This document shows, in pieces, positions 1 through 13,372 of a stretch of 64,000 nt of DNA (its first letter is position 1; every line of letters begins with the position of its first letter). The stretch is from a virus: the IMG/VR virus record IMGVR_UViG_3300045988_095676, positions 26,969 through 90,968 of that record. One strand, 5' to 3'. The notes under the pieces were generated by a model. It saw nothing but the letters and a program-made list of their open reading frames with translations, made no database searches and was not told where the DNA came from. Position numbers and translations under genes: made by a program.

Positions 1-2
1 AA

Positions 3-428
3 GTTACAGGATTTGATGGCAAGAAAAGCCTCGATTATTCAGCTCAAAACAACTTTACTTATCAGAAGATTACTGAATATTCAAACAGGTTCAATGCTTC
101 TATTAAAGACATCAGAGCCGGTATAATGGCTAAATTAGGTTTAGGAGGAAATACTCAGCAAGAGCCGGTAGCTCCTCAGACTTATACCCAGCAGCCGGCC
201 GCGCCTCAACAGGTTCAACAACCCAAGTCTGTTCCGAGTGCTATTCCGTATCAGAATTACCAACAGCCTGCTCAACAGCCTGCTCAGTATCAGGCCCCGG
301 CTCAGCCGGCTGCACCTGCCCCGGCACCTACTACAAGGAGCACCAAGCCTCAGCATCAGACGCAGCCACAGCCGCAAGCACAGATGCCGAACTTCCCTCC
401 TATGGAAGAAGATGACCTTCCATTTTAA
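3..428 (+). CDS. ssb: single-stranded DNA-binding protein, 5' end outside window
   Basis: The frame is open from the window edge into the 126..428 ORF. It has a Gln/Pro/Ala-rich linker and a C-terminal acidic tip EEDDLPF typical of SSB tails. Confidence 0.6.
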   Translation, partial: VTGFDGKKSLDYSAQNNFTYQKITEYSNRFNASIKDIRAGIMAKLGLGGNTQQEPVAPQTYTQQPAAPQQVQQPKSVPSAIPYQNYQQPAQQPAQYQAPAQPAAPAPAPTTRSTKPQHQTQPQPQAQMPNFPPMEEDDLPF

Positions 429-438
429 TATAAACATC

Positions 439-469
439 AGCCCAGGAGAATAACATCTCTTGGGCTTTT
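439..469 (+). terminator. intrinsic terminator after ssb
   Basis: 9-bp stem agcccagga/tcttgggct (one G-T pair), 10-nt loop, then TTT. Confidence 0.5.
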
Positions 470-552
470 AAAGATTGTGTAGAATGATGGTAGAAATAGT
501 TACAAGATTTCCCCTTATTAAACTTCGTAGGAAAGTGACAGAAGAAAGGATT

Positions 553-732
553 ATGGCGAAGCATGGGGATAAATTATGTATGATCTACTCAGAAACCAGA
601 GAAAAATATAAGCAAGGAGATGAGTGGGTCGATGATCCTAATGATGCAGACATAAGTACTTTTCGTGAGTGTTATGAATCAACGAAGGATATAAAAAAAG
701 AAGGTATTGTTTATTGTACTATAAAAATATAA
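553..732 (+). CDS. hypothetical protein (59 aa from the ATG inside the 475..732 ORF)
   Basis: ORF track. The ATG at 553 follows the terminator. No recognisable motif. Confidence 0.4.
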   Translation: MAKHGDKLCMIYSETREKYKQGDEWVDDPNDADISTFRECYESTKDIKKEGIVYCTIKI

Positions 733-734
733 TT

Positions 735-1385
735 ATGGACAAGTTAGAAGATATTGAAAGACTTCTTTCTGAAAAAGAAGATAGCAAGAAGGATACTGTT
801 TCTGAAAAGAACAACAAACATAAAAAAGAAGATAAGGTTGTTAATAAAATACCTGAATCGTATTTGACTCCAGGTTATCAGAAGACTGTGCAGGTAGGTA
901 TTAAGAAGCTGTATCCCGATGTCGTGATACCTGAATACAAGCATGATGGTGATGCATGTTGTGATATTCGTGCATATAGAGTGGTGAAGATGGTGAATGA
1001 CATGGGAGTGGAAATAGATGTTCCTTCCGATTTTGAATCAATCACCTTATATCAAGGTTATTCTGTTAGAATCGGAACAGGATTCAAATTGAATATCCCA
1101 GAAGGATGGTGCGTGAATGTAGAAGGAAGATCAGGATTCTCTTTTGACGAGGGAGTGGTAGTTACTAACGCGCCCGGTAAATGCGAATTTACCTACAAAG
1201 GAGAGTATATGGTTAATCTTACTAAAATCAATAAAAAACCGACCGTAATCCATAAAAACGATCGAATAGCTCAGATGGAAATCGTTCCACAATACAAAAT
1301 GGTATTGGAAGAGGTGACAGATATTGAGGTAGAAGACGGAAATGAACGTGGAGAAAAAGGTCTTGGTAGTTCTGGAGTTAAGTAA
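735..1385 (+). CDS. dut: dUTPase with N-terminal Lys/Glu-rich extension
   Basis: Trimeric dUTPase motifs: GKCEFTYKGEYMVNL (motif 3-like) and C-terminal RGEKGLGSSG (motif 5). ATG at 735 lies within the 714..1385 ORF. Confidence 0.8.
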   Translation: MDKLEDIERLLSEKEDSKKDTVSEKNNKHKKEDKVVNKIPESYLTPGYQKTVQVGIKKLYPDVVIPEYKHDGDACCDIRAYRVVKMVNDMGVEIDVPSDFESITLYQGYSVRIGTGFKLNIPEGWCVNVEGRSGFSFDEGVVVTNAPGKCEFTYKGEYMVNLTKINKKPTVIHKNDRIAQMEIVPQYKMVLEEVTDIEVEDGNERGEKGLGSSGVK

Positions 1386-1403
1386 TGTTTAAATATTTTG
1401 AAA

Positions 1404-2138
1404 ATGAGCATGTTAGGTTTTACATTCATCACAGACAGCAAGCTGTCAATGTACAGGGAGAAAGCTATTAAATCCGAAAATCTTGCAAAAGAAATTGAGG
1501 AAATGCAGGATAAGGCTGATTTTTACAAGGAAAGGCTTTCCGAACTTAAGTCAGATATCGCTTCAAAGGATAAAGAGATTTTATCTATTGGCAAAGATCT
1601 TTCTGAGTCTAAGGAAAAGATTGACGCCTTGAAGGAAAATCAGAAAAAGCTGATAAAAAGCGTCAAGAAGAAAACGGAAGAACTTGATGCGGCCAAGGCT
1701 GATCTTGACAAAGCTAAGTCTGATCTTGATGAGGCTAATTACAAAATCAGTAACTTGGAAGAAAAGAAAAACAGTATATCATTTGAATTAAAAAAGAAAT
1801 CAAATGCATTGATTGAAGCCAGGATCAGAATCGGAGATTTGGAAAACGAGGTTTCGGTTGGGTCCAAAACAATACAAGAGTTAGAATCGAAGCTGAAATT
1901 AATGCAAGTAGAATTAAGAGGCTACCAGATAGGTATAATCGGTAAAGACAAAAACGATTCCGCTGAGCCGGAATTGGATAAAGATGAGGAGTCAGATAAG
2001 GATGTGGCTGAGTCGGAGAAGTCTGATGTTGTTCCTGAGATGGATGTGATTCAGGAAGAAGCCGGTGATATTGTGGAGCCCGAAAACGAAGCTGAACGAG
2101 TAAAAGACACTAAAAAGAAGAAGAAAAAAAAGAAGTAG
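1404..2138 (+). CDS. coiled-coil protein with acidic region and poly-Lys C-terminus
   Basis: ORF track. Heptad-like K/E/L-rich sequence, ends KKKKKKKK. Confidence 0.6.
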   Translation: MSMLGFTFITDSKLSMYREKAIKSENLAKEIEEMQDKADFYKERLSELKSDIASKDKEILSIGKDLSESKEKIDALKENQKKLIKSVKKKTEELDAAKADLDKAKSDLDEANYKISNLEEKKNSISFELKKKSNALIEARIRIGDLENEVSVGSKTIQELESKLKLMQVELRGYQIGIIGKDKNDSAEPELDKDEESDKDVAESEKSDVVPEMDVIQEEAGDIVEPENEAERVKDTKKKKKKKK

Positions 2139-2244
2139 GTATTTTAATCCTTTTTATATTTTAATGTTTGCCATATTATGGGTTAGTACTTAACTTTGCG
2201 TTGAGAGAGTTTTTAGGATAATTATTGGTTAATATTTAGCTGTT

Positions 2245-2276
2245 ATATGCAGGCGTCTGTTAAGGCTCCTGCATAT
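2245..2276 (+). promoter_or_regulatory. conserved-loop hairpin A (terminator-like, followed by TTTT)
   Basis: 9-bp stem atatgcagg/cctgcatat. The 14-nt loop cgtctgttaaggct shares the CTGYKAAGR core with hairpins B, D and F. Confidence 0.6.
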
Positions 2277-2282
2277 TTTTAA

Positions 2283-2355
2283 GGTCCTGTAGCTTAGTGG
2301 TGAAAGCAGGCGGCTCATAACCGCAAGATCGTGGGTTCAAATCCCTCTGGGACCA
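2283..2355 (+). tRNA. tRNA-Met (or Ile2), anticodon CAT
   Basis: Hand-folded cloverleaf: acceptor ggtcctg/tgggacc, anticodon loop ctCATaa, T-loop ttcaaat. No encoded CCA. Confidence 0.8.
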
Positions 2356-2356
2356 C

Positions 2357-2427
2357 TGTCCAATGGTGTAGTGGTAGCACAACAGATTTTGGTTCTGTTA
2401 GCGGAGGTTCGAATCCTCCTTGGATAA
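2357..2427 (+). tRNA. tRNA-Gln, anticodon TTG
   Basis: Acceptor tgtccaa/ttggata, anticodon stem acaga/tctgt with loop ttTTGgt, T-arm ggagg-ttcgaat-cctcc. No encoded CCA. Confidence 0.8.
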
Positions 2428-2497
2428 CGGTACATATTTTGTGTAAAGTGTTAATTATCTCGGTGTTTGCGGTGTGTGAACATAGCAAACATTAAAT

Positions 2498-2569
2498 AGC
2501 CTGGTAGTTAAACGGATATAACAAAAGTTTCCTAAACTTTAGTTCCGGGTTCGACTCCCGGTTGGGCTA
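2498..2569 (+). tRNA. tRNA-Arg, anticodon CCT
   Basis: Anticodon stem aaagt/acttt with loop ttCCTaa, T-arm ccggg-ttcgact-cccgg. The acceptor has several G-U pairs, so the ends are +/-1 nt. Confidence 0.7.
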
Positions 2570-2572
2570 CAT

Positions 2573-2644
2573 GGCTTGTTGGATGAGTGGTTTAGTCAGG
2601 GATCTGCAAAATCTCGTAGGGCGGTTCGATTCCGCCACAAGCCT
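2573..2644 (+). tRNA. tRNA-Cys, anticodon GCA
   Basis: Acceptor ggcttgt/acaagcc, anticodon loop ctGCAaa, T-arm ggcgg-ttcgatt-ccgcc. No encoded CCA. Confidence 0.8.
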
Positions 2645-2660
2645 CTAAAAAAGTAAGACA

Positions 2661-3353
2661 ATGAACTACCCAGAGCAACAAATGCTTAAGATCCTTAATA
2701 GGGATCTGCTAAGTAATCCGATGTATGTTATTAACAATCTCCATATATATGATTGGGAATCTGACTTCTTGGCCATAACAAGATCATTGTACGCTTATGA
2801 AGTAGAGGTCAAGATGTCTAAACAAGATTTCTTTAACGACTTCAAAAAGGATAAAAAACATAAGGTTCTTAAAGACGGCATTATTAAAGTAGGTGGTGTC
2901 ATAAGCTATCCTCCAAACTATTTCTACTACGCCTGTCCGCCTAATATGATTGACGTAAATGAAGTTCCGTCTTATGCCGGGCTGATTTATGTCGATGTTA
3001 GTAAAAATAGGAAGAACGTCGTTAAGGTCGCACCTTTAATTCATAGACAGAAGTTTGATGTAGTGGGTAGGAAACTGGTGGATAAGTTTTACTACAATAT
3101 GCTTACTTGGAAGAAAAGAGCTATTTCAAACGTGTATGCTGACCCAGCCAAGGAAAGAGAGAAAGGCGTGCGTGCCGGGGCTGAGGCTGTGAGGAAGTCG
3201 GCCTGGGATGCGTTCAGGGCGCAGTGCCCGCACATTGCTTTCCCCTATGGAAAAGAATTTCCGATGTGTGACGATCACGAACAAGATCATCCCATGAGAG
3301 ACTGCATACTTCAGTGTGAAAAAGGTGGAATATTTAAAAACAGATTGAAATGA
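2661..3353 (+). CDS. hypothetical protein, possible PD-(D/E)XK-fold nuclease (MmcB-like)
   Basis: ORF track. D...ExK-type pattern (ESDFLAIT...YAYEVEVK) near the N-terminus. The functional call is weak. Confidence 0.45.
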   Translation: MNYPEQQMLKILNRDLLSNPMYVINNLHIYDWESDFLAITRSLYAYEVEVKMSKQDFFNDFKKDKKHKVLKDGIIKVGGVISYPPNYFYYACPPNMIDVNEVPSYAGLIYVDVSKNRKNVVKVAPLIHRQKFDVVGRKLVDKFYYNMLTWKKRAISNVYADPAKEREKGVRAGAEAVRKSAWDAFRAQCPHIAFPYGKEFPMCDDHEQDHPMRDCILQCEKGGIFKNRLK

Positions 3354-3619
3354 GCACCCCACGTGAATTAAGTAGAATAGCTAATAGGATAGCCGGTAAG
3401 ATGACTGATGATGGATGGGTTAGCCCCGGTAGAAAGAATCTCGTTTCCGATAAGAAGGTTATGGAGTTAATAGATTCGATTTTTAATGAAATTTGGAGAG
3501 AATTAGATGACGGGAAAAGAGTCCATATCAGGAAACAGATGATTTTCAAAAAGATTTTTGTCAGTAGGCAAAAAGATAAATACTATATACAATGCATAGA
3601 AAAAAGGGACGCCAAATAG
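3350..3619 (+). CDS. hypothetical protein
   Basis: ORF track. ATGA start/stop overlap with the upstream gene. Confidence 0.6.
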   Translation: MSTPRELSRIANRIAGKMTDDGWVSPGRKNLVSDKKVMELIDSIFNEIWRELDDGKRVHIRKQMIFKKIFVSRQKDKYYIQCIEKRDAK

Positions 3620-3636
3620 ACGTCCCTTTTTGTTTT
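3601..3636. terminator. bidirectional terminator between convergent genes
   Basis: Perfect 10-bp stem aaaagggacg/cgtccctttt, 9-nt loop, A-run upstream and T-run downstream. Confidence 0.7.
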
Positions 3637-3666
3637 TTATAAGCAATACAGACGTGAATAATCACA

Positions 3667-4323
3667 TCACTTCATTACTGTCCTTACCAACTTAGAAACA
3701 GCTTGTGTGATAGTCCACCTGATGTTAGCATTAACATTGATAGTCTGAGGAGTACCGTTTGCATCCAAGTTGATTACCTCCTTGTCTATTTCCAAGAACG
3801 GATCACCTGCTGTCTGGGTAATAACCGTATTAGCTGTCTGACCACCGGCGGCCGTCACCTTAAGAGTATTTACCAGATCATTTACATCAGCGTTTTCTGG
3901 AATACCGGAGAATACGATACTGAAAGCAAATCCCCCTGTTGCACCAGGGTCGTCGGCAATAACAGCACCGTTATTGGTAGCCTTGCCTGCTGCCTGATAG
4001 GAGGCTGGTATTTCCAGCGTCAGAGGATGAGACTCGTCTGGAGTTAAGGAGAACGTTAATTTAGTTGAGTTACTTGTGCCGTTGATTGTTACAGTACCAC
4101 CTTCTTTCCCTACAGATGCAGTAGGATCTATTTTTACGAACTCAGCTACCGGAGCTTGGTTTATGGTAGCACTTTTCTTAACATCCCCGGATTCGGCACC
4201 AAATTCTACTTGTAACGTACGCTGTACACGACCTTCGTATTTTTCACCTGATACGGTAACTGCCTGATCACCGTCACCTGATCCCGGATTGAAGGTTACA
4301 AAACCTATTTTCATTTCTGCCAT
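3667..4323 (-). CDS. Ig-like (BACON/Big-like) repeat surface or virion-decoration protein
   Basis: Thr/Gly/Asn-rich beta-strand repeats (GDQAVTVSG, GGTVTINGTSN, GTPQTINVNANIRWTI) resemble Bacteroidetes BACON/Ig modules. It is the only - strand gene in the first 54 kb. Confidence 0.45.
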   Translation of the reverse strand: MAEMKIGFVTFNPGSGDGDQAVTVSGEKYEGRVQRTLQVEFGAESGDVKKSATINQAPVAEFVKIDPTASVGKEGGTVTINGTSNSTKLTFSLTPDESHPLTLEIPASYQAAGKATNNGAVIADDPGATGGFAFSIVFSGIPENADVNDLVNTLKVTAAGGQTANTVITQTAGDPFLEIDKEVINLDANGTPQTINVNANIRWTITQAVSKLVRTVMK

Positions 4324-4439
4324 GATATAAATGATTTTTTTAGTTAATTAATATCTTGACAAATATAGTTTTATTATACGGAAATCCTATTATTGATCTT
4401 CATAAATTAAAACTATCTTTATCCCAAAATAAGACAATT

Positions 4440-5554
4440 ATGAGAAGAAGATTTTTTAACAAAATAGGGGGGGGTATTTACCTACTGATAATTTTATAGT
4501 TTTTGATAAATCTGTATCAGATCCGGCTAATATAACAATAAGCGAAGACAGTGATTTTTTAAATAGGTTGATTACAAGTGGCTTTTATAGAGTTCTTTGC
4601 AAGAGCGCTATGGGAGGAGGAGAGGTTTTTGTATGTAGGTTGAAGGAAGACAACAGCAATTTGTATCTTGATGGTAGTCAGGCTAATCTTACCGGACCAG
4701 AAGGTGATGTGATGGTCGTTTTCTTAGAATTTTGGTATAAATGGTATAAGGTGGATGATAATAGATTTCTTTATCATTTTGCTGATCATGATATTGACGG
4801 CACTTACATCCATGTCCCGGAATCTCTTGTTGGAGCATATAAAGGATATGTATCTTTGAATGGATTATATAGCTGGAGTGGTGTTAGTCCTACAACTTCA
4901 AAATCATTCAACGATTTTGAAGGTTATGCGAAAGCGCGTGGTACCGGGTTTCAGATGATAGATTTTCAACAACATTGCGTGATTGCTATGATGTTGTATG
5001 CTAAGTACAAAACACGTAATATTCAATCTGTATTAGGATTAGGTGGCGCAAATAATAATCCGGCTACAACAACGGGAAGCAGCAACGCAACCGGCGGTGC
5101 GGATACCAAAAACGAAAGTTCAAAGTACGTTTGCGGCTTAGGTTTGGAAGGGGTTTTTGGTGGTATCTATGAATGGGTTGAAGGTGTAGAAATCAACAAC
5201 CGAGTTTGGAAAATCACCGACCCAGACGGATCGACTCGCAATGTGAACGCCGGAACTTCCAATGGCTGGATAACGAATATCGCAGCGGAAAACGGTCCGT
5301 TTTTCGATGTGGTGCCGACAAATGTTGGCGGTAACGATTCCATGCATTATTCAGATTACTATAGTCAGACATCGAGCAACTCCATTGTTTTGGCGCGCTC
5401 CTATAGCGGCTCGGATACGAGTAGTGGCGTGGCGTATGCGTATGCGTCTCGCAACGCGTTGAGCGCGAGTTCGTACTTCGGTTCGCGTCTTGCTTTCCGT
5501 GGAATCATATCCGAGGTGGCTCCAGAGCAGTTCAAAAAATTACCTGTATTATAA
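4440..5554 (+). CDS. fibre/receptor-binding-like protein with C-terminal FGE/C-type-lectin-like fold, interrupted at a G8 run (needs -1 shift)
   Basis: ATG 4440 encodes MRRRFFNKIGGG. The frame of ORF 4568..5554 is open back to 4460 through G8 at 4467-4474. GLGLEGVFGGIYEWVEG and the terminal ...GSRLAFRG resemble the GNVWEW / GFR motifs of FGE-type lectin folds. Confidence 0.5.
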
Positions 5555-5600
5555 TATCATATTTTAATTGTTTTTAAATTGTATTGTTTATATTATTGCG

Positions 5601-5608
5601 TATATTTG
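5601..5608 (+). promoter_or_regulatory. Bacteroidota-type -7 promoter box TATATTTG
   Basis: Matches TAnnTTTG, 26 nt upstream of ATG 5634. Confidence 0.45.
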
Positions 5609-5633
5609 CGATACAATTTAAAAACATTATATC

Positions 5634-6056
5634 ATGAAGATAAACTTTTTAAGCAGTAAAACCTATGTAGGTTCTAAGACAAAAGAAGCTAAAATCAGAA
5701 AGCTTTCTATTAGCAAAGATCGGATTATGACCATATCGGTGGACAATCTGAAATGGATGGGTATCGAAGATGCGGTTATTATTGGTATGGAAGAAGGAGC
5801 TGAGTTTAAAGGGGTGTTGGATTCTAATTTGTATATAGCTCCTTCTAAGGTAGAAGACGAGAGATCGTTTTTATTAAATAAACAAGGTGAGAAATATAGA
5901 CGTATTTACCTCCGTGATGTACTGTCTTCGTTAGGTTGGGATATCGGTGATAATCAGTATGCGGTTTATGATATTGTGAAGGTTAAGGACGAAGATGGTG
6001 TGTTCTGCCTGGTTCCGAGAGAGATTAAGAAAAGTAAGTTTGAGAAAGGAGAATGA
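5634..6056 (+). CDS. hypothetical protein
   Basis: ORF track. Promoter-like box upstream. Confidence 0.65.
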   Translation: MKINFLSSKTYVGSKTKEAKIRKLSISKDRIMTISVDNLKWMGIEDAVIIGMEEGAEFKGVLDSNLYIAPSKVEDERSFLLNKQGEKYRRIYLRDVLSSLGWDIGDNQYAVYDIVKVKDEDGVFCLVPREIKKSKFEKGE

Positions 6057-6057
6057 T

Positions 6058-6936
6058 ATGGTACAAGATATTGATATAAAATCCAAACGAATATTATTGT
6101 TTGATTTTGATGGAACGCTTATAGAAACCGCTTCTGGGAATACGTTCGCTACAGACTTGACAGATATGAGGATTAAGATGGATGTGGTGAATAAGGCTCT
6201 TGACCTCATGCAGGAGAACGGTGTTAAGGTATTTGCTATCGTAAGCAATCAAGGAGGAGTAGAAGCTGGGTTTGTTTCTGGAGCTGATATTGAAGCTAAG
6301 ATAGAATACGTACTGAGGTCCGTACATGATCTGGCGGTAAAGAGAGGTATAAGAGGCGTCCTATATGAAAAAAGGTTGTGTTATTCAAATGACGAACAAA
6401 ATCCGATGAGGAAGCCTAATACGGGCATGATTGATGATATTCTTATGAAGTGTAAAGACACGGTAATGCGCGGTATGAACTTCAGTCAACTTAAGGGATG
6501 TTCGTTGATGGTCGGGGACGCCAGTGGTCTGCCAGGGCAGTTCTCTGATTCGGATAAGGTATGTGCCTATAATTCCGGTATTAACTATATGGATATTACT
6601 ACATTTTTGGATAAAGATCTTGATTTAGAATATGTATTGTCCAAAGAACATACAAGTGAAGGAATAGTTATTCTAAACAACGATCATATATATATCCTTG
6701 AAAATCCATATGGGGTTGGTCTTAATATAAAAATCACTTTAAAAGATTTTTATAAGATTGAAACCGATGATGGAAAAACTGCAACCGTAGATGATGTGCT
6801 GAATATAAGGATTGATAAAGATCAGAATTTTAATTCATATAGTGATGTTATAAAAATAGAAACATTAAAAGACGGTAGTATCAAATATACAAGCTTATAT
6901 CATGAAAGTAAAGAAAACAGCGATAGTTTATCATAA
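6058..6936 (+). CDS. HAD-superfamily phosphatase (polynucleotide 3'-phosphatase / GmhB-like) with unknown C-terminal domain
   Basis: HAD motif I LLFDFDGTLIE, motif II VSNQGG, Lys motif MRKPNTGM, motif IV MVGDASG. ATG 6058 lies 1 nt after the upstream stop. No kinase P-loop. Confidence 0.7.
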   Translation: MVQDIDIKSKRILLFDFDGTLIETASGNTFATDLTDMRIKMDVVNKALDLMQENGVKVFAIVSNQGGVEAGFVSGADIEAKIEYVLRSVHDLAVKRGIRGVLYEKRLCYSNDEQNPMRKPNTGMIDDILMKCKDTVMRGMNFSQLKGCSLMVGDASGLPGQFSDSDKVCAYNSGINYMDITTFLDKDLDLEYVLSKEHTSEGIVILNNDHIYILENPYGVGLNIKITLKDFYKIETDDGKTATVDDVLNIRIDKDQNFNSYSDVIKIETLKDGSIKYTSLYHESKENSDSLS

Positions 6937-7858
6937 ATCGGATTTAGATGGCGTTGTATCGGCAGCCATCGCAACCATGTACGAAAACAGTAAAAACAAG
7001 GATGTTGTTTATATCCCGTATTCGTATGAAGATGATGTTAAGAAAGTTGTTGACCAAGTACGTGACTTAGATGTTGTTTATGTTCTTGACGTGTCTTTTG
7101 GAGCCGATTCTAAAACTGTTTTCAAAAAGTGGCTTGATGAAGGGAAGAGCCTGATGTGGATAGATCACCACAAGGGAATTATTGAGGACAGTAAGACATG
7201 GGGGTTCGTAGTTCCAGGGTTGAGGAGGGTCGGTGTCGGTGCGTGCGCTCTGGCTTCGGACCTGCTTATGGGGAAGGTGCCGGCGATCGTCCGATGCCTG
7301 TCAGACTACGATGTGTGGAATAAAGAATCTGGCTTAGGCTGGGATACGGTAGTAGCTGTCCAGTATGCCTTGAGATCAAAAATAAGACTCAATGTATTGA
7401 TTGCATTGTCGTATTTATATGATCACTTTAAAGAAAACATGAAAGACAATGAAATTGATCTTATTTTTTATGATCTTGCTAAAGAAGGACGTGCTATAAT
7501 TAATTACATGGCTTGTAAAAACGAAGATGAGGTAAGTAGGTACTCGTTCGAAGCTTACGTCGACGAGGTTAAGGTTATGGCTATGAATACCGCTGAATTT
7601 AGCTCTAAGGTATTTGATTCTCTTACACCGGACTGGTTAGACGGTAGAAAAATTAAAGCCCTGATGCCATTTTGTATCATGCCATGTGGAAAAGTTAGGT
7701 TCTCTCTTTACGAATGCGTAGAAGACAGCGTAGATTGCTGTGAGGTAAGTAAGAGATTCGGTGGTGGAGGACATGCTGGTGCTGCTGGATTCGTTATAGA
7801 CGTATCAAGTGACCAGTTTAAGGACTTCCTTGAAAGTAAAAAACTTTTATCGAAATGA
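6902..7858 (+). CDS. DHH/DHHA1-family phosphoesterase (NrnA/RecJ-like)
   Basis: Motifs HKSDLDGV, DVSF, WIDHHKG (DHH) and GGGGHAGAAGF (DHHA1 GGGH). Confidence 0.8.
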   Translation: MKVKKTAIVYHKSDLDGVVSAAIATMYENSKNKDVVYIPYSYEDDVKKVVDQVRDLDVVYVLDVSFGADSKTVFKKWLDEGKSLMWIDHHKGIIEDSKTWGFVVPGLRRVGVGACALASDLLMGKVPAIVRCLSDYDVWNKESGLGWDTVVAVQYALRSKIRLNVLIALSYLYDHFKENMKDNEIDLIFYDLAKEGRAIINYMACKNEDEVSRYSFEAYVDEVKVMAMNTAEFSSKVFDSLTPDWLDGRKIKALMPFCIMPCGKVRFSLYECVEDSVDCCEVSKRFGGGGHAGAAGFVIDVSSDQFKDFLESKKLLSK

Positions 7859-8226
7859 AGCGTGAATTATATCAGTTCTATCCGGAAGTCTATCCTTTTA
7901 ATCTGTGGATATACGTAGGAAAAGATGTATCTGGCATGGTAGAATGTTTCAATAACGATTTTAGTTACGTAGATAATAGCAAGGCTGTAACTGTATCCGT
8001 TCCATACGGAGGGTGTAAATTAAATCCTAATACGGGATTTTTGATATGGTTTCTTAATAAGAAAATAATTGATTTTGAAACAGTTTGCCATGAAGCATCC
8101 CATGTTTCTACTGAAGCTTTTAATTTCTTAGGAGAAGAAGTAAAAAACTTCAGAACCATTCTCGTATCTCAATGGATGGATAGGGAGAAAGTGCGAGGAA
8201 GTAAAGATCGGAATAGCCGAAGATAA
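7855..8226 (+). CDS. small protein with HExxH motif (possible minimal zinc metallopeptidase)
   Basis: CHEASHVSTEA contains HEASH. ATGA overlap with the DHH gene. The functional call is weak. Confidence 0.4.
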   Translation: MKRELYQFYPEVYPFNLWIYVGKDVSGMVECFNNDFSYVDNSKAVTVSVPYGGCKLNPNTGFLIWFLNKKIIDFETVCHEASHVSTEAFNFLGEEVKNFRTILVSQWMDREKVRGSKDRNSRR

Positions 8227-8267
8227 ACTAATATGGGAAAGTAAATAATTACCGTCGTAAAATAAGT

Positions 8268-8300
8268 ATGGGGAACTTTGGATAGGTTCCCCATATTTTT
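8268..8300 (+). terminator. intrinsic terminator
   Basis: 9-bp stem atggggaac/gttccccat, loop tttggatag, then ATTTTT. Confidence 0.7.
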
Positions 8301-8380
8301 ATGTGATGAGGGAGAGGAATGGTGAAATGTTTATGTGATGGGAGAGATATGAGAAAGAGGTTTATGTGATGGGAGAGAGG
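8299..8380 (+). repeat. three direct repeats TTATGTGATGrGrGAGAG (iteron-like)
   Basis: Copies at 8299-8317, 8331-8347 and 8362-8380, with period 31-32 bp. Confidence 0.8.
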
Positions 8381-8408
8381 GGGTACCTATCACGAACCTC
8401 CCGCCCCC

Positions 8409-8463
8409 GAAACGCGTTTTCTCCCCCGCACCCCCCTTCGCTGGAAAACCGGAAACGCGTTTT
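8409..8463. repeat. two copies of palindromic GAAACGCGTTTT embedded in C-runs
   Basis: Copies at 8409-8420 and 8452-8463. C-runs at 8400-02, 8404-08, 8423-27 and 8431-36. Confidence 0.8.
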
Positions 8464-8474
8464 ACCTCAAACCC

Positions 8475-8520
8475 ACAAACTCTCTGATTATCAATCACTT
8501 ATTTAAATTATTGATAATCA
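8475..8520. repeat. 11-bp perfect inverted repeat TGATTATCAAT / ATTGATAATCA
   Basis: Arms at 8475-8485 and 8510-8520. Related TGATWATCA copies near 8540 and 8623. Confidence 0.8.
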
Positions 8521-8705
8521 ATGTGTTATTATAACATATTGATTATAAGCCACTTAAATAAGCATATATCCTACATATTAATGTACGCGTATAACACTGC
8601 TCTCGTTCGTTTTATAACTTTCTGATAATCAGATAATATAATCGAAATTAATACAAATTAACAAAAAAAAGATATCATATATATTTGTAGTATTGATAAA
8701 TGTCG

Positions 8706-8713
8706 TATATTTG
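8706..8713 (+). promoter_or_regulatory. -7 promoter box TATATTTG (second copy at 8680-8687)
   Basis: Matches TAnnTTTG. It is followed by the hairpin cgtgatc-gagaga-gatcacg. Confidence 0.4.
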
Positions 8714-8858
8714 CGTCGTGATCGAGAGAGATCACGAGTTAACATAGTGAACCTATATAGTGTACCCGTTGGGCTAACTATATATGTATCTGTAATTGCC
8801 TGCGTTGTGGGTCATTAATTTGAATATCATTTGTTTAACAATTAAAATATATTGGGAT

Positions 8859-9398
8859 ATGATTACGAAAAAAAATGTAAACAAACTACAGAATGCCGTT
8901 ATCAAAGAAAATGCTGCAAATTTGGTAGGTGCTGTTAAACTGTACAACGCTCTATTTGCTAATGGAGCTGATCTAAAGGCTATTTGCAAGGCTTTGGAAA
9001 TACCGGCAGAATACGCCGTAAAGGTTGCAGCCCTCGCCAAGGATAAAAAACGCCTGGTAGCCGTGTGTAGCCAAATGTTACCGAAAGTTGATAATACCTT
9101 TGTTAAATTTGCTTTATACTCTAAAGTATATAAGGATACCAATGCGGACAAAGAAAAAGGAATTGAAGCTAAAACGGCTGATTGGTGCGCTGAGAATGTG
9201 GTTTACGGTAGCGAATATAAAGCATTTGGTTTTACTACTGCCGAATCATTGGAGAATAAAAAAAGTACTAAATGGTTGGTAAAAGAAACCGACGAGTACA
9301 AATCTACTTATGTGGCTGTTAAGATCAAATCTTATTCTATTCGCACTGTGGCAAAGTGTGTAAGTGAATACCTCGCACATGAAAGCAACCAGCAGTAA
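8859..9398 (+). CDS. hypothetical protein
   Basis: ATG 8859 inside ORF 8796..9398, preceded by the 19-nt element TGTTTAACAATTAAAATAT. Isolated between two long non-coding regions. Confidence 0.6.
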   Translation: MITKKNVNKLQNAVIKENAANLVGAVKLYNALFANGADLKAICKALEIPAEYAVKVAALAKDKKRLVAVCSQMLPKVDNTFVKFALYSKVYKDTNADKEKGIEAKTADWCAENVVYGSEYKAFGFTTAESLENKKSTKWLVKETDEYKSTYVAVKIKSYSIRTVAKCVSEYLAHESNQQ

Positions 9399-9960
9399 CA
9401 AGGCACGGAGAGCGCCGTTAAGCTCTCCAAAGGTTTGACGCGTACCGTTAAACGCGTCTGTACGCCGTTGTCAGTGGGTGCACGTCCCGCGTATGCTTTA
9501 GACTGAAGCTGACAAAACAGAGAGTTATTTTACATATTGGAGATAGATATACCGGTATCGAGGCCGTTGGCAATTAAAAATACGGTATTGCTGCATGAAC
9601 TGCACTAAATAAGTGTGGTTTATGTTAGGTATGTTAGTACAGTTTGGAAAACATACCGTTGTACGCGGTTTATCTCCAGACCGAAACGTGTCTTACTTGC
9701 CTACACGTAAAATAGGACAAGGCTGTAGATTAAATTACAGGGTATAAACATGTAGCCTACCATGTAGGAGCGTGATATATCAAAGCGCAAGGACACAATC
9801 GCCTTTATTTGTGGCTAAGTTGTGTAGCAGACGGAAAATATAATAACAACATAGTACGAGCCTGTACGCAAGAACTACGTACTAATTACGGGCTGTTGGT
9901 TGTAGCATAAAATCTCTATAGGATAGGAATGCGTGTCCGGTTCGATTCCGGAGCAACCTC
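9399..9960 (+). ncRNA. candidate large structured non-coding RNA ending in a tRNA/tmRNA-like T-arm
   Basis: No ORF. Many local hairpins, five CCGTTR motifs, an 8-bp long-range pairing (9538-45 with 9671-78) and a 3' end tccgg-ttcgatt-ccgga-gcaacc. Confidence 0.35.
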
Positions 9961-9983
9961 TAAATTATAAATAATATAATAGC

Positions 9984-10154
9984 ATGGAAAAGAAAGCAAT
10001 GATCAACGCTTTAATTGAAGCGTTCAATAAATCTAAAAACAGTTGCGTAAAAATAACATTGCGTAACTATATCGAGACGGTGGAAACATTGAGCGAAAGT
10101 GAGTACAAAGAGGCGGAAGGTTTCTATATCGAAGCACTTAACCGCTGGAGTTAA
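9984..10154 (+). CDS. hypothetical protein (56 aa, below the ORF-track cutoff)
   Basis: Hand-translated ATG..TAA ORF MEKKAMINALIEAF...NRWS. Confidence 0.45.
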   Translation: MEKKAMINALIEAFNKSKNSCVKITLRNYIETVETLSESEYKEAEGFYIEALNRWS

Positions 10155-10176
10155 TCATAATTAAAGCATAAAGAAA

Positions 10177-10383
10177 ATGGAAAGGAAATTTAAATCTTAT
10201 ATGGTAGACGTCCGCGGTCTGTCCAGGAAAGAAGCTAAAGAAAAGCGGAAAAGAGCGTATCGGGAATTTATGTTGTATCGTGATCTCAAAGAAGCGTATC
10301 ATGCCGATACAGGAAAGGACAAATGCAAACGTAAAGTCCATACATCACGAACATACGTGAAAGAAAACATAAACAGTATTTAA
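10177..10383 (+). CDS. small basic hypothetical protein
   Basis: ORF track, followed directly by a strong terminator. Confidence 0.55.
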   Translation: MERKFKSYMVDVRGLSRKEAKEKRKRAYREFMLYRDLKEAYHADTGKDKCKRKVHTSRTYVKENINSI

Positions 10384-10391
10384 ATAGGGAT

Positions 10392-10426
10392 AGGGTTGTT
10401 CCGAATATCGGAGCAGCCCTATTTTT
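10392..10426 (+). terminator. intrinsic terminator
   Basis: 12-bp stem agggttgttccg/cggagcagccct (two G-T pairs), 5-nt loop, then ATTTTT. Confidence 0.75.
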
Positions 10427-10488
10427 GTATCCTACTCTTTCTATTTACGGGTAGGATATTCTGAGAGTGAACGGCGGATGTAAGCTAT

Positions 10489-10581
10489 ATTGGTCTAAAA
10501 CGAAACTAAAATATGAGAGTTTGGATACAATGCCGGTATTTTGTCTATATCATGTCGTTGAAATTGGTCTAAAACGAAACT
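10489..10581 (+). repeat. 19-bp perfect direct repeat ATTGGTCTAAAACGAAACT, two copies
   Basis: Copies at 10489-10507 and 10563-10581 (74-bp period). Confidence 0.85.
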
Positions 10582-10583
10582 TT

Positions 10584-10629
10584 AGGCGGTTTTCTGACCC
10601 AAAATAGGGCGTCGGATGCCGCCTTTTTC
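10584..10629 (+). terminator. terminator-like hairpin with internal sub-hairpin
   Basis: aggcgg...ccgcct stem enclosing ccc-aaaata-ggg, followed by TTTTC. Confidence 0.5.
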
Positions 10630-10754
10630 GTCTCTATGGATTGAAAATTAGGCTTATTGTACTTTTCTTAAAAATAAGGTATGCTTGATTATCAATTAGT
10701 TAGGTTTTATGATACCCGTATTTTCGGACACACTTATTGTAAATTTTTTATTTT

Positions 10755-10922
10755 ATGTGGTGGTTTTTATTAGTAGCTGACCTGTATTTTTTATCGGTTG
10801 GAGTAAGGTCTATGTTGGAGTACGGACCGGATCAGTATAATATTGTAATGGTCTTTTGCTTTTCTTTATTGGCTTTGATTATAGGCTTAAATATCTATCT
10901 TGATAGGAGGAGCAGGCGGTAG
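10755..10922 (+). CDS. small membrane protein (55 aa, two hydrophobic helices)
   Basis: Hand-translated MWWFLLVADLYFL...LALIIGLNIYLDRRSRR, TAG stop. Below the ORF-track cutoff. Confidence 0.4.
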   Translation: MWWFLLVADLYFLSVGVRSMLEYGPDQYNIVMVFCFSLLALIIGLNIYLDRRSRR

Positions 10923-11110
10923 GGCGTGGGCTGAAGGCTCTCTATTCTCTCTATGGAATGATATTATCTCTAAATACCCCATACTTCATGCCAGAGTATA
11001 AGCTTGTAGCGCTCTCCGTATGCCGGTAGTGAGGCCGAGAGCGCAGGTTCTATGCGGAAAGCCGGAGGATTAGCCGGGGTTGGAGAGGGGGAGAGGGAGG
11101 GCACTCCCTA

Positions 11111-11250
11111 CCAACAAAATTCAATAGATAAGCGTTTTAAAACAGTGTTCTGTAGATCATTTCCACAAAATTCAATATGATAAGGGTTTAAAACAGCATT
11201 ATATAGGTTCCTTCCAACAGATTAAGGGTTGAGGACTGCATTATGTGAGT
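11111..11250 (+). repeat. three imperfect tandem repeats (core ATWAAGSGTTTAAAACAG..TAG), period about 52 then 42 bp
   Basis: Cores start at 11128, 11180 and 11222. The first two units also share ACAAAATTCAATA. Confidence 0.7.
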
Positions 11251-11285
11251 ATTTTTTTTTAAGCGGGATGTTTAACAATTAAAAT

Positions 11286-11555
11286 ATGGATGGTATGAAC
11301 GTATATGACTTTGCGCCTGACTTAGATTTGAGTAAGGAGGTAGAAGGTTCTATTTTCGGGGTAAAAGGAATAGAAGGCAGTGATGGAATAGTATATGCTA
11401 AGGTAGTTAGCTGTGTAGACGTTAAGGATTACAGTTGTGATAGGTGTATTTTTTATGATTGTTATAAGGATAAATGTTTATTATCGCGTAGTGATAGTTG
11501 TATAGATGGAGATTGGATTTGTAGGTACGAACAGGCTGCCATAGAGGGGGAGTAG
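11286..11555 (+). CDS. Cys-rich hypothetical protein
   Basis: ORF track, preceded by the same 19-nt element as the 8859 gene. Confidence 0.65.
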   Translation: MDGMNVYDFAPDLDLSKEVEGSIFGVKGIEGSDGIVYAKVVSCVDVKDYSCDRCIFYDCYKDKCLLSRSDSCIDGDWICRYEQAAIEGE

Positions 11556-11663
11556 GCGGCGCCTTGGGCTAAGGCCTGCGGTTGTAGGTGGAACGTAGGT
11601 CGGAGCAGAGCCGGAACAGTTTATTGTGGAACTAAAAAAAAATAAAAAGGAGGAGATAGCGAT

Positions 11664-11744
11664 ATGAAAAAGGCATTTAAGATATTTTCTATTATGTTTG
11701 TCATAGAAATAGTGCTGATAGCTATTTTAGATGCTATGGCGTAA
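11664..11744 (+). CDS. 26-aa hydrophobic peptide
   Basis: MKKAFKIFSIMFVIEIVLIAILDAMA, preceded by an unusually strong AAAGGAGGAG Shine-Dalgarno-like sequence. Confidence 0.4.
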   Translation: MKKAFKIFSIMFVIEIVLIAILDAMA

Positions 11745-11787
11745 GTGAGAAAAATTTCTTCATTAATTTTCTTATGCTTTAGACAGA

Positions 11788-11815
11788 ATGCTCCCATCTG
11801 CGAAGATCGGAGCAT
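11788..11815 (+). promoter_or_regulatory. conserved-loop hairpin B
   Basis: 7-bp stem atgctcc/ggagcat, 14-nt loop catctgcgaagatc. Confidence 0.6.
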
Positions 11816-11823
11816 TTGCTTTA

Positions 11824-11868
11824 TGGGATTCATGGTGCAGCAAGTCGGTTCGATTCCGGCGATCTCAC
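11824..11868 (+). ncRNA. tRNA-like acceptor/T-arm minihelix (not a full cloverleaf)
   Basis: Acceptor tgggatt/gatctca (7 bp including G3:U70), 13-nt linker, T-arm gtcgg-ttcgatt-ccggc. No D or anticodon arm. Confidence 0.4.
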
Positions 11869-11891
11869 ACAACATTAAAATAGGGAAGAAC

Positions 11892-12296
11892 ATGTTAAAA
11901 GAAGAATTTGAAGAACTGATTAAAAGGGAGGTAAACGAAAATCAGTATAAAAACATAGAAACGGCATACGAGGCTTTGCCGGAGTATATGGATAAGATGT
12001 ATTTAGCAAGTGCTATTTCAAATGATATTGGGAAAGCTATTAATGTCTTATCGTTTTTAGGATCGCATATAAGCGAGTTAATGGGTTCGATAATAATCGA
12101 AAGGCAAAAGGTGGAATCATGTGCCTATGATTTAATAAACAAATCGCATGAGGAGGATGACTTGAAAGCAAGAGAGATTGCCGTGCGATTAATAGGAGAG
12201 AGGGAAACAGTGGCATACACAGTAAAAGAAGGGCTGCCATTGTGGGAACAAGATAAAAAGTTTATAATAGAATTAATAAAGGAGGATAGAAAATGA
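11892..12296 (+). CDS. hypothetical protein
   Basis: ATG 11892 inside ORF 11745..12296. The upstream part of that ORF overlaps the RNA elements. Confidence 0.65.
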   Translation: MLKEEFEELIKREVNENQYKNIETAYEALPEYMDKMYLASAISNDIGKAINVLSFLGSHISELMGSIIIERQKVESCAYDLINKSHEEDDLKAREIAVRLIGERETVAYTVKEGLPLWEQDKKFIIELIKEDRK

Positions 12297-12622
12297 AAGA
12301 CGGTATTGTATTGCATCCAGAGCATGGGTTGAATCCATCCATAGAACTATGCATAGTATGCGGTGAAGAGATGGGGATTGCTTTATTAGGGAATAACATC
12401 AAAGGGCAGGCGCCGCATCATATATGCACGGGAGAAATATGTGACAATTGCAAAAAGATAATAGATGACGGAGGTTGTTTTATTATCGAAGTTGAGGATG
12501 GATCAGATCAAAAGAATCCGTATCGTACAGGGAGATATTGCGCGATAAAGAAAGAAGCAGCAAAGAAAATACTTGGACAGGAGCATAGTATTGTGTACAT
12601 GGAAAAGTCTGCGTACAGTTAA
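12293..12622 (+). CDS. zinc-ribbon hypothetical protein
   Basis: ORF track, CIVCG...CDNC cysteine pairs, ATGA overlap. Confidence 0.65.
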   Translation: MKDGIVLHPEHGLNPSIELCIVCGEEMGIALLGNNIKGQAPHHICTGEICDNCKKIIDDGGCFIIEVEDGSDQKNPYRTGRYCAIKKEAAKKILGQEHSIVYMEKSAYS

Positions 12623-12648
12623 ATAATACCACAAAAATAAAGAAAGAT

Positions 12649-12963
12649 ATGTTTGCAAAAGAAGAGCGATTATTCATATGGAAAAAGGTATATGAGATGA
12701 TTGATAGGTTAGAGGATGGGGAATACATATGTGTTGCGTTAAGAAATGTAGTGTTTATGTATTTCAAAACACATAAAAATATCTATGAGTTTCGTTCAGA
12801 CGAAATGGTGAGAATATATTTCCCGGAATTGGAAGAGAAGATAAGTATGGCCACAGAACCAGAGGAAACAAGAACGTTTTATGGGTGGTTTGGTTGTCTT
12901 AGTCCAGAAACGAAGGAGGTAAGGCTGAATATTGTGAAAGATATTATAAAAGAATTAGAATAG
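12649..12963 (+). CDS. hypothetical protein
   Basis: ORF track. Confidence 0.6.
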   Translation: MFAKEERLFIWKKVYEMIDRLEDGEYICVALRNVVFMYFKTHKNIYEFRSDEMVRIYFPELEEKISMATEPEETRTFYGWFGCLSPETKEVRLNIVKDIIKELE

Positions 12964-13009
12964 TATTTTTGTTAATCTATTTTATTCATCAAATTAAGTT
13001 TTGGGTTTT

Positions 13010-13039
13010 GGCATGTCGGTTCGTGAGGATAGGCATGCC
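13010..13039 (+). promoter_or_regulatory. conserved-loop hairpin C
   Basis: 6-bp stem ggcatg/catgcc. The 18-nt loop tcggttcgtgaggatagg matches the hairpin E loop at 14 of 18 positions. Confidence 0.6.
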
Positions 13040-13056
13040 TATTTCTGCATCATAGA

Positions 13057-13117
13057 GGGGATGACGCGGCGTGCCGGTGCGTATGTGCCGGTCCTGGTTC
13101 GATTCTGGGCATCTCAC
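13057..13117 (+). ncRNA. tRNA-like acceptor/T-arm element (not a full cloverleaf)
   Basis: ggggatg/catctca pairing (6 bp including G3:U70), 29-nt GC-rich linker with a gtgccggt direct repeat, T-arm cctgg-ttcgatt-ctggg. Confidence 0.35.
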
Positions 13118-13138
13118 AAACAATAAAACAAAAAAGTT

Positions 13139-13372
13139 ATGAGAATATATAAGAATGATATTATAAAGGCGTCAGCAATAAGCACCGGAGCCGACAGAGG
13201 CGTGTTGCTGTGTTCAATAACAGATTCAGGCTTTACGTCTATAGCGGGCGTAATATCGGCTGTTAAGGATAGGTTACCAAACGAAGATCACAAGAAGATG
13301 GTTTTTGAAATCTTGAATGATACGAAAAAAGAGTACGGAAGATATAATAATTGCGGAACAAAAGTATTGTAA
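13139..13372 (+). CDS. hypothetical protein
   Basis: ORF track. Confidence 0.6.
   Translation: MRIYKNDIIKASAISTGADRGVLLCSITDSGFTSIAGVISAVKDRLPNEDHKKMVFEILNDTKKEYGRYNNCGTKVL

Follow-up and report, generated by a model that had tools for sequence, protein, structure and literature searches.

A HAD 3'-phosphatase-type gene, a DHH/DHHA1 phosphoesterase gene and a small HExxH gene form a lineage-restricted cassette in relatives of the gut phage csAssE-Sib

We analyzed a 64-kb stretch of the virus record IMGVR_UViG_3300045988_095676 (hereafter the window), in which three overlapping genes on the + strand encode a HAD phosphatase, a DHH/DHHA1 phosphoesterase and a small protein bearing an HExxH motif. 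The three genes had been called in an initial annotation made from the DNA sequence alone, and we found them as described there (5995..6936, 6902..7858 and 7855..8226). The window represents a large piece of a phage genome, with a GC content of ~38% and a strong coding bias toward the + strand as far as ~54 kb. The three-gene cassette and the features around it are as follows.

2283-2645: four tRNAs, 3.4 kb upstream of the cassette
5634..6056, + strand: upstream open reading frame (ORF) of 140 amino acids (aa), taken from the ORF list; its stop codon (6054-6056) stands 1 nucleotide (nt) before the HAD start
6058..6936 (ORF listed as 5995..6936), + strand: HAD phosphatase, predicted to be of the PNKP / DNA 3'-phosphatase type (HAD-IIIA)
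6902..7858, + strand: DHH/DHHA1 phosphoesterase of 318 aa, stand-alone and predicted to be NrnA/NrnB-like
7855..8226, + strand: small HExxH protein of 123 aa, a +1 frameshift allele of a 130-aa family
8264..8304, + strand: intrinsic-terminator-like hairpin with a 15-bp stem and a 5-nt loop, followed by AUAUUUUUAU

The HAD and DHH genes overlap by 35 nt, and the DHH gene and the small gene by 4 nt (ATGA). The hairpin downstream of the third gene has a predicted folding energy of -20.7 kcal/mol (z -4.95), and none of 200 shuffled sequences was as stable. These overlaps, together with the lone strong terminator after the third gene, suggest that 5634-8304 constitutes a single transcription unit. 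The 140-aa ORF probably opens this unit, as its stop codon is separated from the HAD start by a single nucleotide. It was found directly upstream of the HAD gene in 78 of 80 related viral contigs (tblastn), albeit with no Pfam, PHROG or PADLOC match. We compared it with the gene that separates the HAD from the small protein in a more distant locus (L091), and the two turned out to be unrelated. The true start of the HAD gene is almost certainly the ATG at 6058, since the upstream ORF ends at 6054-6056, most of the homologues are 292 aa long and many of the related loci have an in-frame stop codon just before this ATG. A search of the window from 1 to 13000 against Rfam yielded the four tRNAs and nothing else.

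The nearest phage is csAssE-Sib (OR575929.1; 151 kb, human gut), which shares 81.5% nucleotide identity with the region and possesses the same three genes in the same order (WOZ57223.1, WOZ57222.1 and WOZ57221.1). They are annotated there as 'polynucleotide kinase, 3 phosphatase', 'phosphodiesterase (bifunctional oligoribonuclease and PAP phosphatase NrnA)' and 'hypothetical protein', respectively. As this public relative names the same genes, the trio is real and has partly been annotated already, and the HAD and DHH proteins are members of known families. In csAssE-Sib, the cassette closes a block of genes for replication and nucleotide metabolism, comprising a helicase, thymidylate synthase, RuvC, a clamp, SSB, dUTPase, an ATPase, tRNAs and an MmcB-like protein. 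The host of the window phage is likely a member of Bacteroidales, judging from the human-gut source, the GC content and the BACON-type proteins annotated in csAssE-Sib. We found no paper on csAssE-Sib, nor any on crAss-like phages in combination with DHH proteins.

The first protein had initially been assigned to the polynucleotide-3'-phosphatase type, and the profile and structure searches agree. It matched Pfam PNK3P (PF08645) with an E-value of 5.9e-21 and 75.3 bits (cutoff 22), and TIGR01662 (HAD-IIIA, NCBIfam) with 51.1 bits, above the cutoff of 44.6. TIGR01664 (DNA 3'-phosphatase) was the top-scoring model, yet the score stayed under its equivalog cutoff (71 vs 107.65 bits). Mammalian PNKP was the sole match in a phmmer search against PDB, and no PHROG family matched at E <= 0.01. 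Motifs I-IV (FDFDGT, VSNQGG, RKPNTGM and VGDASG..FSDSD) are retained and (nearly) invariant in 34 homologues down to 32% identity. In Foldseek searches, the AlphaFold2 model of the protein (predicted local distance difference test, pLDDT, 85.9) retrieved PNKP with an E-value of 8e-11, GmhB/HisB-N with ~1e-6 and T4 Pnkp with 0.036. The closest solved structure is that of the PNKP phosphatase, not GmhB or HisB, with four orders of magnitude lying between them, and the nearest solved relatives are DNA-repair PNKP enzymes in complex with 3'-phosphorylated single-stranded DNA (ssDNA). The closest viral models were a protein of a phage metagenome-assembled genome (MAG), baculovirus NRK-1, the HAD of crAssphage ctbg_1 and the PNKPs of giant viruses. 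The extended motif IV (GDASG..GQFSDSDK..A.N.GI.Y.D) resembles the version of the PNKP family and is unlike the GDxxxD of GmhB. Altogether, the matches, the intact set of four catalytic motifs and the model place this protein in the PNKP-type 3'-phosphatase class, from which its activity and substrate are predicted.

Compared with the phosphatase domain of mammalian PNKP, yeast Tpp1 and plant ZDP, the phage HAD has the same fold and all four HAD motifs, among them the nucleophile loop DxDGT and the extended form of motif IV. On the other hand, the phage protein has neither a kinase nor an FHA domain, scores under the TIGR01664 equivalog cutoff, is encoded by a phage, acts on a predicted substrate, and bears an unrelated, dispensable C-terminal domain. 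The initial annotation was right that no kinase P-loop domain accompanies the HAD, as none was found fused or adjacent to it. It was also right about the presence of an extra C-terminal domain, but the size of ~120 aa proposed there has to be revised to ~100 aa: the core spans residues 1 to ~190, and the C-terminal domain residues ~190-292 (about 6628-6936). The latter is all-beta in the model, has no recognizable relative and is not a kinase.

The window carries the canonical HAD allele. A second allele, in which the motifs read ISNQCD, MMKPNPGM and VG[S/N]ASG, was found in csAssE-Sib and in ~23 of 80 viral contigs of the same lineage (L007-L086; see below). In this allele the motif-IV Asp is gone, as is the Arg ahead of the catalytic Lys, and the protein may be a weakened or repurposed phosphatase. 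The HAD of csAssE-Sib (12446-13318) carries the variant motifs SNQCD, MMKPN and VGNASG, and its core is only 63% identical to that of the window HAD, while the adjacent DHH proteins of the two phages are 94% identical, implying recombination within the cassette. Separately from the cassette, several genomes of the same lineage possess another PNK3P-type HAD, encoded tens of kb away as a stand-alone protein of ~170 aa with 45-46% identity to P0341 (L190, L199, L203, L204 and L205, on the contigs of L023, L028, L070, L078 and L079). Such a second copy was detected neither in the 64-kb window nor, by tblastn, in csAssE-Sib.

The DHH/DHHA1 identity of the second protein, which had been proposed from its sequence, was borne out. 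Residues H11, D14, D16, D63, D88-H89-H90, D137 and G288-G-G-H291 are invariant in 29 homologues down to 30% identity, and the protein matched PHROG 4771 ('DHH phosphoesterase') with an E-value of 4e-25. The Pfam scores were 26.2 bits for DHHA1 (cutoff 25.9) and 25.4 bits for DHH (cutoff 28.1). When a profile of the family was compared with PDB, the best match was the Helicobacter DHH protein 6mtz (E 2.5e-8), which covered both domains, followed by NrnA, TmPDE, Rv2837c, PAP phosphatase and GdpP-type proteins, with RecJ-type chains being weaker. A relative with 32% identity is labeled by JGI as 'oligoribonuclease NrnB/cAMP/cGMP phosphodiesterase', the name of COG2404. RecJ was rejected as the identity of this protein: TIGR00644 gave 19.6 bits against a cutoff of 396.9, and the length of 318 aa leaves no space for the extra RecJ domains beyond DHH/DHHA1. 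The PDB matches, the RecJ score and the COG2404 label thus point to a stand-alone NrnA/NrnB-like enzyme rather than RecJ, with a substrate predicted accordingly from the family. The phage protein and NrnA/NrnB (COG0618/COG2404; Rv2837c, TM1595 and H. pylori 6mtz) have in common the DHH and DHHA1 domains, a length of ~300-340 aa, the metal-binding motifs and GGGH. They differ in that the sequence similarity is weak (E 1e-8 to 1e-5 with the profile) and that the phage protein belongs to the phage-specific PHROG 4771. The strand motif ahead of GGGH reads R-F-S-L-Y in the phage protein, and the usual motif in NrnA/NrnB is presumably x-S-x-R-S, which is visible in two of the PDB matches.

The third protein carries HEASH at residues 79-83, as called initially. 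The motif HE(A/T/V)xHV and a downstream (S/G)E(P/A)xxYxxGW are common to the homologues from three phage lineages, in each of which this uncharacterized HExxH mini-protein accompanies a phage DHH enzyme. The family is small, with 76 proteins among 5.8 billion clustered proteins. The window protein itself is a frameshifted version: an extra T at ~8150 (8148-8152), where the window reads AAAAAACTTCAG and csAssE-Sib and L008 read AAAAAACTCAG, shifts the frame by +1 and replaces the conserved last ~33 residues with 26 unrelated ones. The ancestral C-terminus (..KIGIAEDKLIWESK*) is intact in another frame at ~8203-8250, and csAssE-Sib has the unshifted 130-aa form. As the 123-aa frameshift allele is present on at least 79 contigs, we regard it as a natural variant. 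Several variants within the lineage have lost HExxH through internal deletions. For this protein we found no Pfam match (nothing meaningful at E <= 5), no significant PHROG match, and no PADLOC or PDB-profile match. An AlphaFold2 model from a 10-sequence alignment had a pLDDT of 46.8 and was unusable, and hhalign gave a probability of 2.6% for a relationship to the 'zincin' of crAssphage ctbg_1.

The linkage of the three genes, on which the initial annotation was built, has comparative support. We scanned 80 viral contigs of the same lineage (L007-L086) with hidden Markov models (HMMs) built from these families, and the HAD gene was followed by the DHH gene in all of them. The remaining parts of the cassette varied. 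The C-terminal domain of the HAD was full at 53, partial at 2 and absent at 25 of the 80 loci, and the small gene, which behaves as a clean indel (window positions 7846 to ~8295), was full at 24, partial at 2 and absent at 46 of the 72 loci that could be evaluated. Both parts are thus dispensable, and we regard them as optional accessories of the cassette. At 8 of the 80 loci, an insert of 898-1487 nt separated the HMM-matched HAD and DHH ORFs. In L068 it lies exactly between the two genes (7143-8369) and contains an ORF of 408 aa, the N-terminus of which is RuvC-like and which also bears a Cys/His motif of the HNH type; read by eye, the protein may be IscB-like (RuvC + HNH). The other loci with an insert in the same place are L034, L035, L072, L077, L081, L083 and L085. 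Among the metagenomic relatives, P0124 (536 aa) is a complete in-frame fusion of HAD and DHH on a single 2.6-kb contig, while P0062 (486 aa) and P0137 (380 aa) are deletion products in which the HAD is fused to a DHH protein devoid of the catalytic N-terminus. Such fusions offer weak Rosetta-stone evidence.

Outside the lineage, the association was seen in a few groups. In the group of L091 and L095, of which the DHH is 35% identical, a PNK3P gene of 264 aa lies immediately upstream of the DHH gene, with a homologue of the small protein two genes further up. The HAD and DHH genes are 2.6 kb apart in L096, and in L002 a homologue of the small protein directly precedes a DHH protein of 471 aa with no HAD. 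The small protein is thus more tightly linked to the DHH than to the HAD. None of 80 more distant DHH loci had a HAD or small-protein homologue within 8 kb, and only one of 80 more distant HAD loci had a DHH gene. The association of the trio is therefore real yet lineage-restricted.

The neighbors of the more distant relatives belong largely to replication and nucleotide metabolism. Further DHH relatives with no HAD sit beside a MazZ-like dATP/dGTP diphosphohydrolase, DNA methyltransferases, or a PD-(D/E)XK nuclease and a DEAD helicase, and 25 distant DHH loci had a mixed set of neighbors including Pol III alpha, PolB, ThyX, helicases and methyltransferases. In 14 clusters of stand-alone phage PNK3P HADs, the neighbors were NrdD, dUTPase, dCMP deaminase, ThyX, a dCTP deaminase-like protein, UDG and metallophosphatases, and no RNA ligase or kinase was found beside them. 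The HAD of crAssphage ctbg_1 lies between DNA ligase/dNMP kinase/ThyX and dUTPase. In L090, L092, L094 and L096, the MazZ-like gene (PF18909) immediately adjoins the DHH gene and is accompanied by DNA methyltransferases. The PF18909 ORF of the window, placed by synteny with csAssE-Sib, is at 50361-50918, ~43 kb from the DHH gene, implying that the latter has moved within the genome. In related phages, Tad2-like and Acb2/Tad1-hairpin genes were found 2-5 kb downstream of the DHH gene (L002 9244-9783; L090 10779-10912), and neither family is among the Pfam families listed for the window.

We tentatively propose, as the explanation that the data support best, that the cassette of this crAss-like (csAssE-type) gut phage is an accessory, co-transcribed system for cleaning up nucleic-acid ends and oligonucleotides and for nucleotide salvage. 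The PNKP-type, Mg2+-dependent HAD would strip 3'-phosphates off DNA or RNA fragments, short oligonucleotides or 3'-nucleotides, and the NrnA/NrnB-like DHH enzyme would hydrolyze the resulting short oligonucleotides with a 3'-OH to 5'-mononucleotides. Products of host and phage nucleic-acid breakdown that would otherwise be dead ends could return in this way to the nucleotide pool, which the neighboring dUTPase, thymidylate synthase and MazZ-like genes would then reshape. The proposal draws on the enzyme classes with their intact motifs, on the linkage of HAD and DHH within the lineage, in L091/L095 and, more loosely, in L096, on the neighborhoods of both families, which are those of deoxynucleoside triphosphate (dNTP) metabolism, on the operon structure with its translationally coupled HAD and DHH genes and on the published behavior of NrnB. 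NrnB of B. subtilis is a 3'-5' exonuclease with equal activity on RNA and on a DNA 5-mer, and it is devoid of pAp 3'-phosphatase activity (PMC10570053), and the same behavior on RNA and short DNA is described for NrnB elsewhere (PMC12709177). Because it has no such activity, an NrnB-like enzyme would gain from a separate 3'-phosphatase.

Several observations weigh against this proposal. The pairing of HAD and DHH is specific to the lineage, as seen from the 160 more distant loci above, so that the two enzymes may act independently. Within the lineage, the C-terminal domain of the HAD and the small gene are presence/absence polymorphisms, as in accessory or anti-defense genes, and ~23 of the 80 loci carry the HAD allele with no motif-IV Asp (VG[S/N]ASG). 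Natural deletions strip the DHH of its catalytic N-terminus (P0062 and P0137), and an insert, putatively IscB-like in L068, splits the gene pair at 8 loci. Such decay of the cassette, in combination with the presence/absence pattern, is typical of conflict genes. In addition, the salvage model gives no role to the conserved HExxH partner, and 2 of the 25 distant DHH loci adjoin RtcB or a PHA02142-type RNA ligase (once each). Our confidence in the salvage proposal is kept low because the pairing is not retained outside the lineage and because of this conflict-gene-like pattern.

Alternatively, the two enzymes could process DNA ends in replication, recombination or repair, with the HAD restoring a 3'-OH as PNKP, Tpp1 and ZDP do, and the DHH protein acting as a minimal RecJ-like ssDNA exonuclease, a role that the initial annotation also considered. 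Consistent with this, the solved structures nearest to the HAD come from DNA-repair PNKP enzymes with 3'-phosphorylated ssDNA bound, the HAD of crAssphage ctbg_1 is near a DNA ligase, and relatives of the DHH gene immediately follow genes for a PD-(D/E)XK nuclease and a DEAD/ResIII helicase or lie beside Pol III alpha or PolB. However, the DHH protein has no RecJ domains beyond DHH/DHHA1 and reaches 19.6 bits with the RecJ model (cutoff 396.9), the annotation of csAssE-Sib includes neither DNA ligase nor DNA polymerase, and the natural deletion and frameshift variants speak against a core role in replication, so that we consider DNA-end processing unlikely. It is very unlikely, in our view, that the HAD dephosphorylates small molecules (a sugar phosphate, histidinol phosphate or a nucleotide, in the manner of GmhB, HisB-N or 5'-nucleotidases) and is functionally unrelated to the DHH protein. 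The missed TIGR01664 equivalog cutoff, the structural proximity of GmhB and HisB-N, the enzymes of mononucleotide metabolism that adjoin the stand-alone relatives and the absence of a HAD-DHH pairing from most lineages would fit such a function. A PNK3P score far over the cutoff, the extended motif IV, which resembles the PNKP rather than the GmhB version, and the Foldseek gap between PNKP and GmhB/HisB contradict it. The searches favor NrnA/NrnB over RecJ for the DHH protein and PNKP over GmhB/HisB for the HAD.

A function in conflict with host defense was the principal idea of the initial annotation, either through the destruction of immune second messengers or through tRNA repair, and both ideas had already been put forward in silico for HAD and DHH proteins of phages (PMC7824862). 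In the former case, the DHH protein, possibly with its HExxH partner, would destroy SAM-AMP, cyclic oligoadenylates or their linear products, CBASS di- or trinucleotides or pApA, and the HAD would take 3'- or 2',3'-phosphates off the products. The DHH-family protein NrN of Bacteroides fragilis specifically degrades SAM-AMP (PMC10600005), phage SAM-AMP lyases have been proposed as anti-CRISPRs (PMC10600005, PMC12255297), and phage DHH phosphodiesterases were proposed earlier to act against SMODS and type III signals (PMC7824862). Being dispensable and highly polymorphic, the cassette resembles anti-defense loci, Tad2-like and Acb2/Tad1-like genes lie a few genes from the DHH gene in related phages, and the likely Bacteroidales host would suit SAM-AMP as the signal of the Bacteroides type III-B CRISPR. 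The phage DHH shares its superfamily with NrN, also from a Bacteroidales setting, and with the DHH-DHHA1 cA4 nuclease of Sulfolobus (cited in PMC7824862), both being precedents for the turnover of immune signals by DHH enzymes, but it sits in a replication/nucleotide-metabolism block and, unlike the CRISPR-associated NrN, not beside CorA or cas genes. Its family shows no specific likeness to a signal-degrading enzyme, the PDB profile matches being generic NrnA/NrnB-type (E 1e-8 to 1e-5), and the neighbors of its relatives are mostly replication and nucleotide-metabolism genes. There was no PADLOC match for the cassette proteins and no anti-defense Pfam family in the window. Furthermore, we know of no signal that requires a PNKP-type 3'-phosphatase, and we count this against the idea. 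We thus hold the destruction of immune signals in general to be unlikely. The narrower version, in which the DHH and HExxH proteins are an anti-defense phosphodiesterase against a Bacteroidales signal, prime candidate SAM-AMP of CorA-type III-B CRISPR, with the HAD clearing phosphorylated products, seems quite improbable. A search for the NrN peptide NYIRIDHHMSMPRIQ, rebuilt from mutagenesis primers, with degenerate DNA patterns gave 3 chance matches (Proteobacteria) in genome_contigs and 0 in metagenome_contigs. As for tRNA repair, the HAD would heal tRNAs that anticodon nucleases of the host have cleaved, acting on their 3'-phosphate or 2',3'-cyclic phosphate termini as in phage T4, with the phage tRNAs and a nucleotidyltransferase taking part. 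The tRNAs are present 3.4 kb upstream of the cassette, and so is a nucleotidyltransferase-like ORF, albeit ~18 kb from the cassette and not in the same block as had been stated. The latter (26252-26863) encodes a minimal protein of 203 aa that is 92% identical to the 'polyA polymerase/CCA-adding enzyme' of csAssE-Sib and bears a GG..DIDIF motif (GGCFKNILSGEKVKDIDIFF) typical of pol-beta-type nucleotidyltransferases, with no Pfam match at E <= 0.01. Outside the window region, csAssE-Sib encodes a Ro60/TROVE-related protein (73091-74725) beside tRNA-Tyr and tRNA-Lys, which also fits tRNA repair, and stand-alone HAD phosphatases of jumbo phages have been assigned to RNA repair where RNA ligases occur (PMC7824862). 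The window and the Pnkp + Rnl1 pathway of phage T4 have a phage-encoded HAD 3'-phosphatase in common. In contrast to the T4 pathway, the window HAD has no kinase domain and no ligase partner: a Pfam survey of 103 window ORFs turned up neither an RNA ligase (Rnl1, Rnl2 or RtcB) nor a polynucleotide kinase, and the annotation of csAssE-Sib (151 kb) includes no polynucleotide kinase, RNA ligase, DNA ligase or DNA polymerase, while a clamp, SSB, a primase/helicase and a DnaB-like protein are present. The similarity of the HAD to T4 Pnkp phosphatase is weak, and its relatives lie among dNTP-metabolism genes with no ligase or kinase neighbors. With neither enzyme found in the window or in the csAssE-Sib annotation, T4-style tRNA repair has no support, and we judge it highly implausible.

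Additional features were noted around the cassette. An ORF of 328 aa (4568-5554) in the window matched the tail-protein families phrog_14959 (E 4.5e-47) and phrog_5302 (E 1e-32), although its location is the replication/early block, where it is flanked by a minus-strand BACON/GH5-like gene on one side and by the cassette on the other. Because csAssE-Sib has only ~185 bp at this position, the ORF is a putative insertion or moved tail-fiber module. Just 3' of the terminator, a 31-nt tandem repeat with the consensus TTTATGTGATGGGGAGAGGAATGAGAAAAAGG occurs in 2.6 copies (8298-8380), and its copy number varies from ~1 to ~6 across the related loci (BLAST). Further downstream, GAAACGCGTTTT, which contains the palindrome AAACGCGTTT, occurs twice as exact copies (8409-8420 and 8452-8463) spaced at 43 nt within a non-coding, G/C-rich stretch, against a chance expectation of 0.3 in the window. 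The pair may be an operator or another protein-binding site. A seemingly similar G/C-rich stretch, judged from ORF translations alone, follows the DHH gene in L091 (~6040-6280).

Hundreds of metagenomic proteins belong to each of the two enzyme families, HAD and DHH. What is new here is the lineage-restricted linkage of the trio, the dispensability of the C-terminal domain of the HAD and of the small gene, the HAD allele deficient in motif IV, the frameshift in the window and the recurrent association of a HExxH mini-protein with a DHH enzyme. If the salvage proposal is true, this would be an ordinary auxiliary cassette for nucleotide metabolism, and its value would lie mainly in the annotation of a phage group that is very abundant in the human gut. 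If the DHH protein instead degrades SAM-AMP or another defense signal of Bacteroidales, it would represent a new class of anti-CRISPR/anti-signaling enzyme in crAss-like phages, and with SAM-AMP as the target it would be a phosphodiesterase equivalent of the SAM-AMP lyase that has been proposed as a phage anti-CRISPR.

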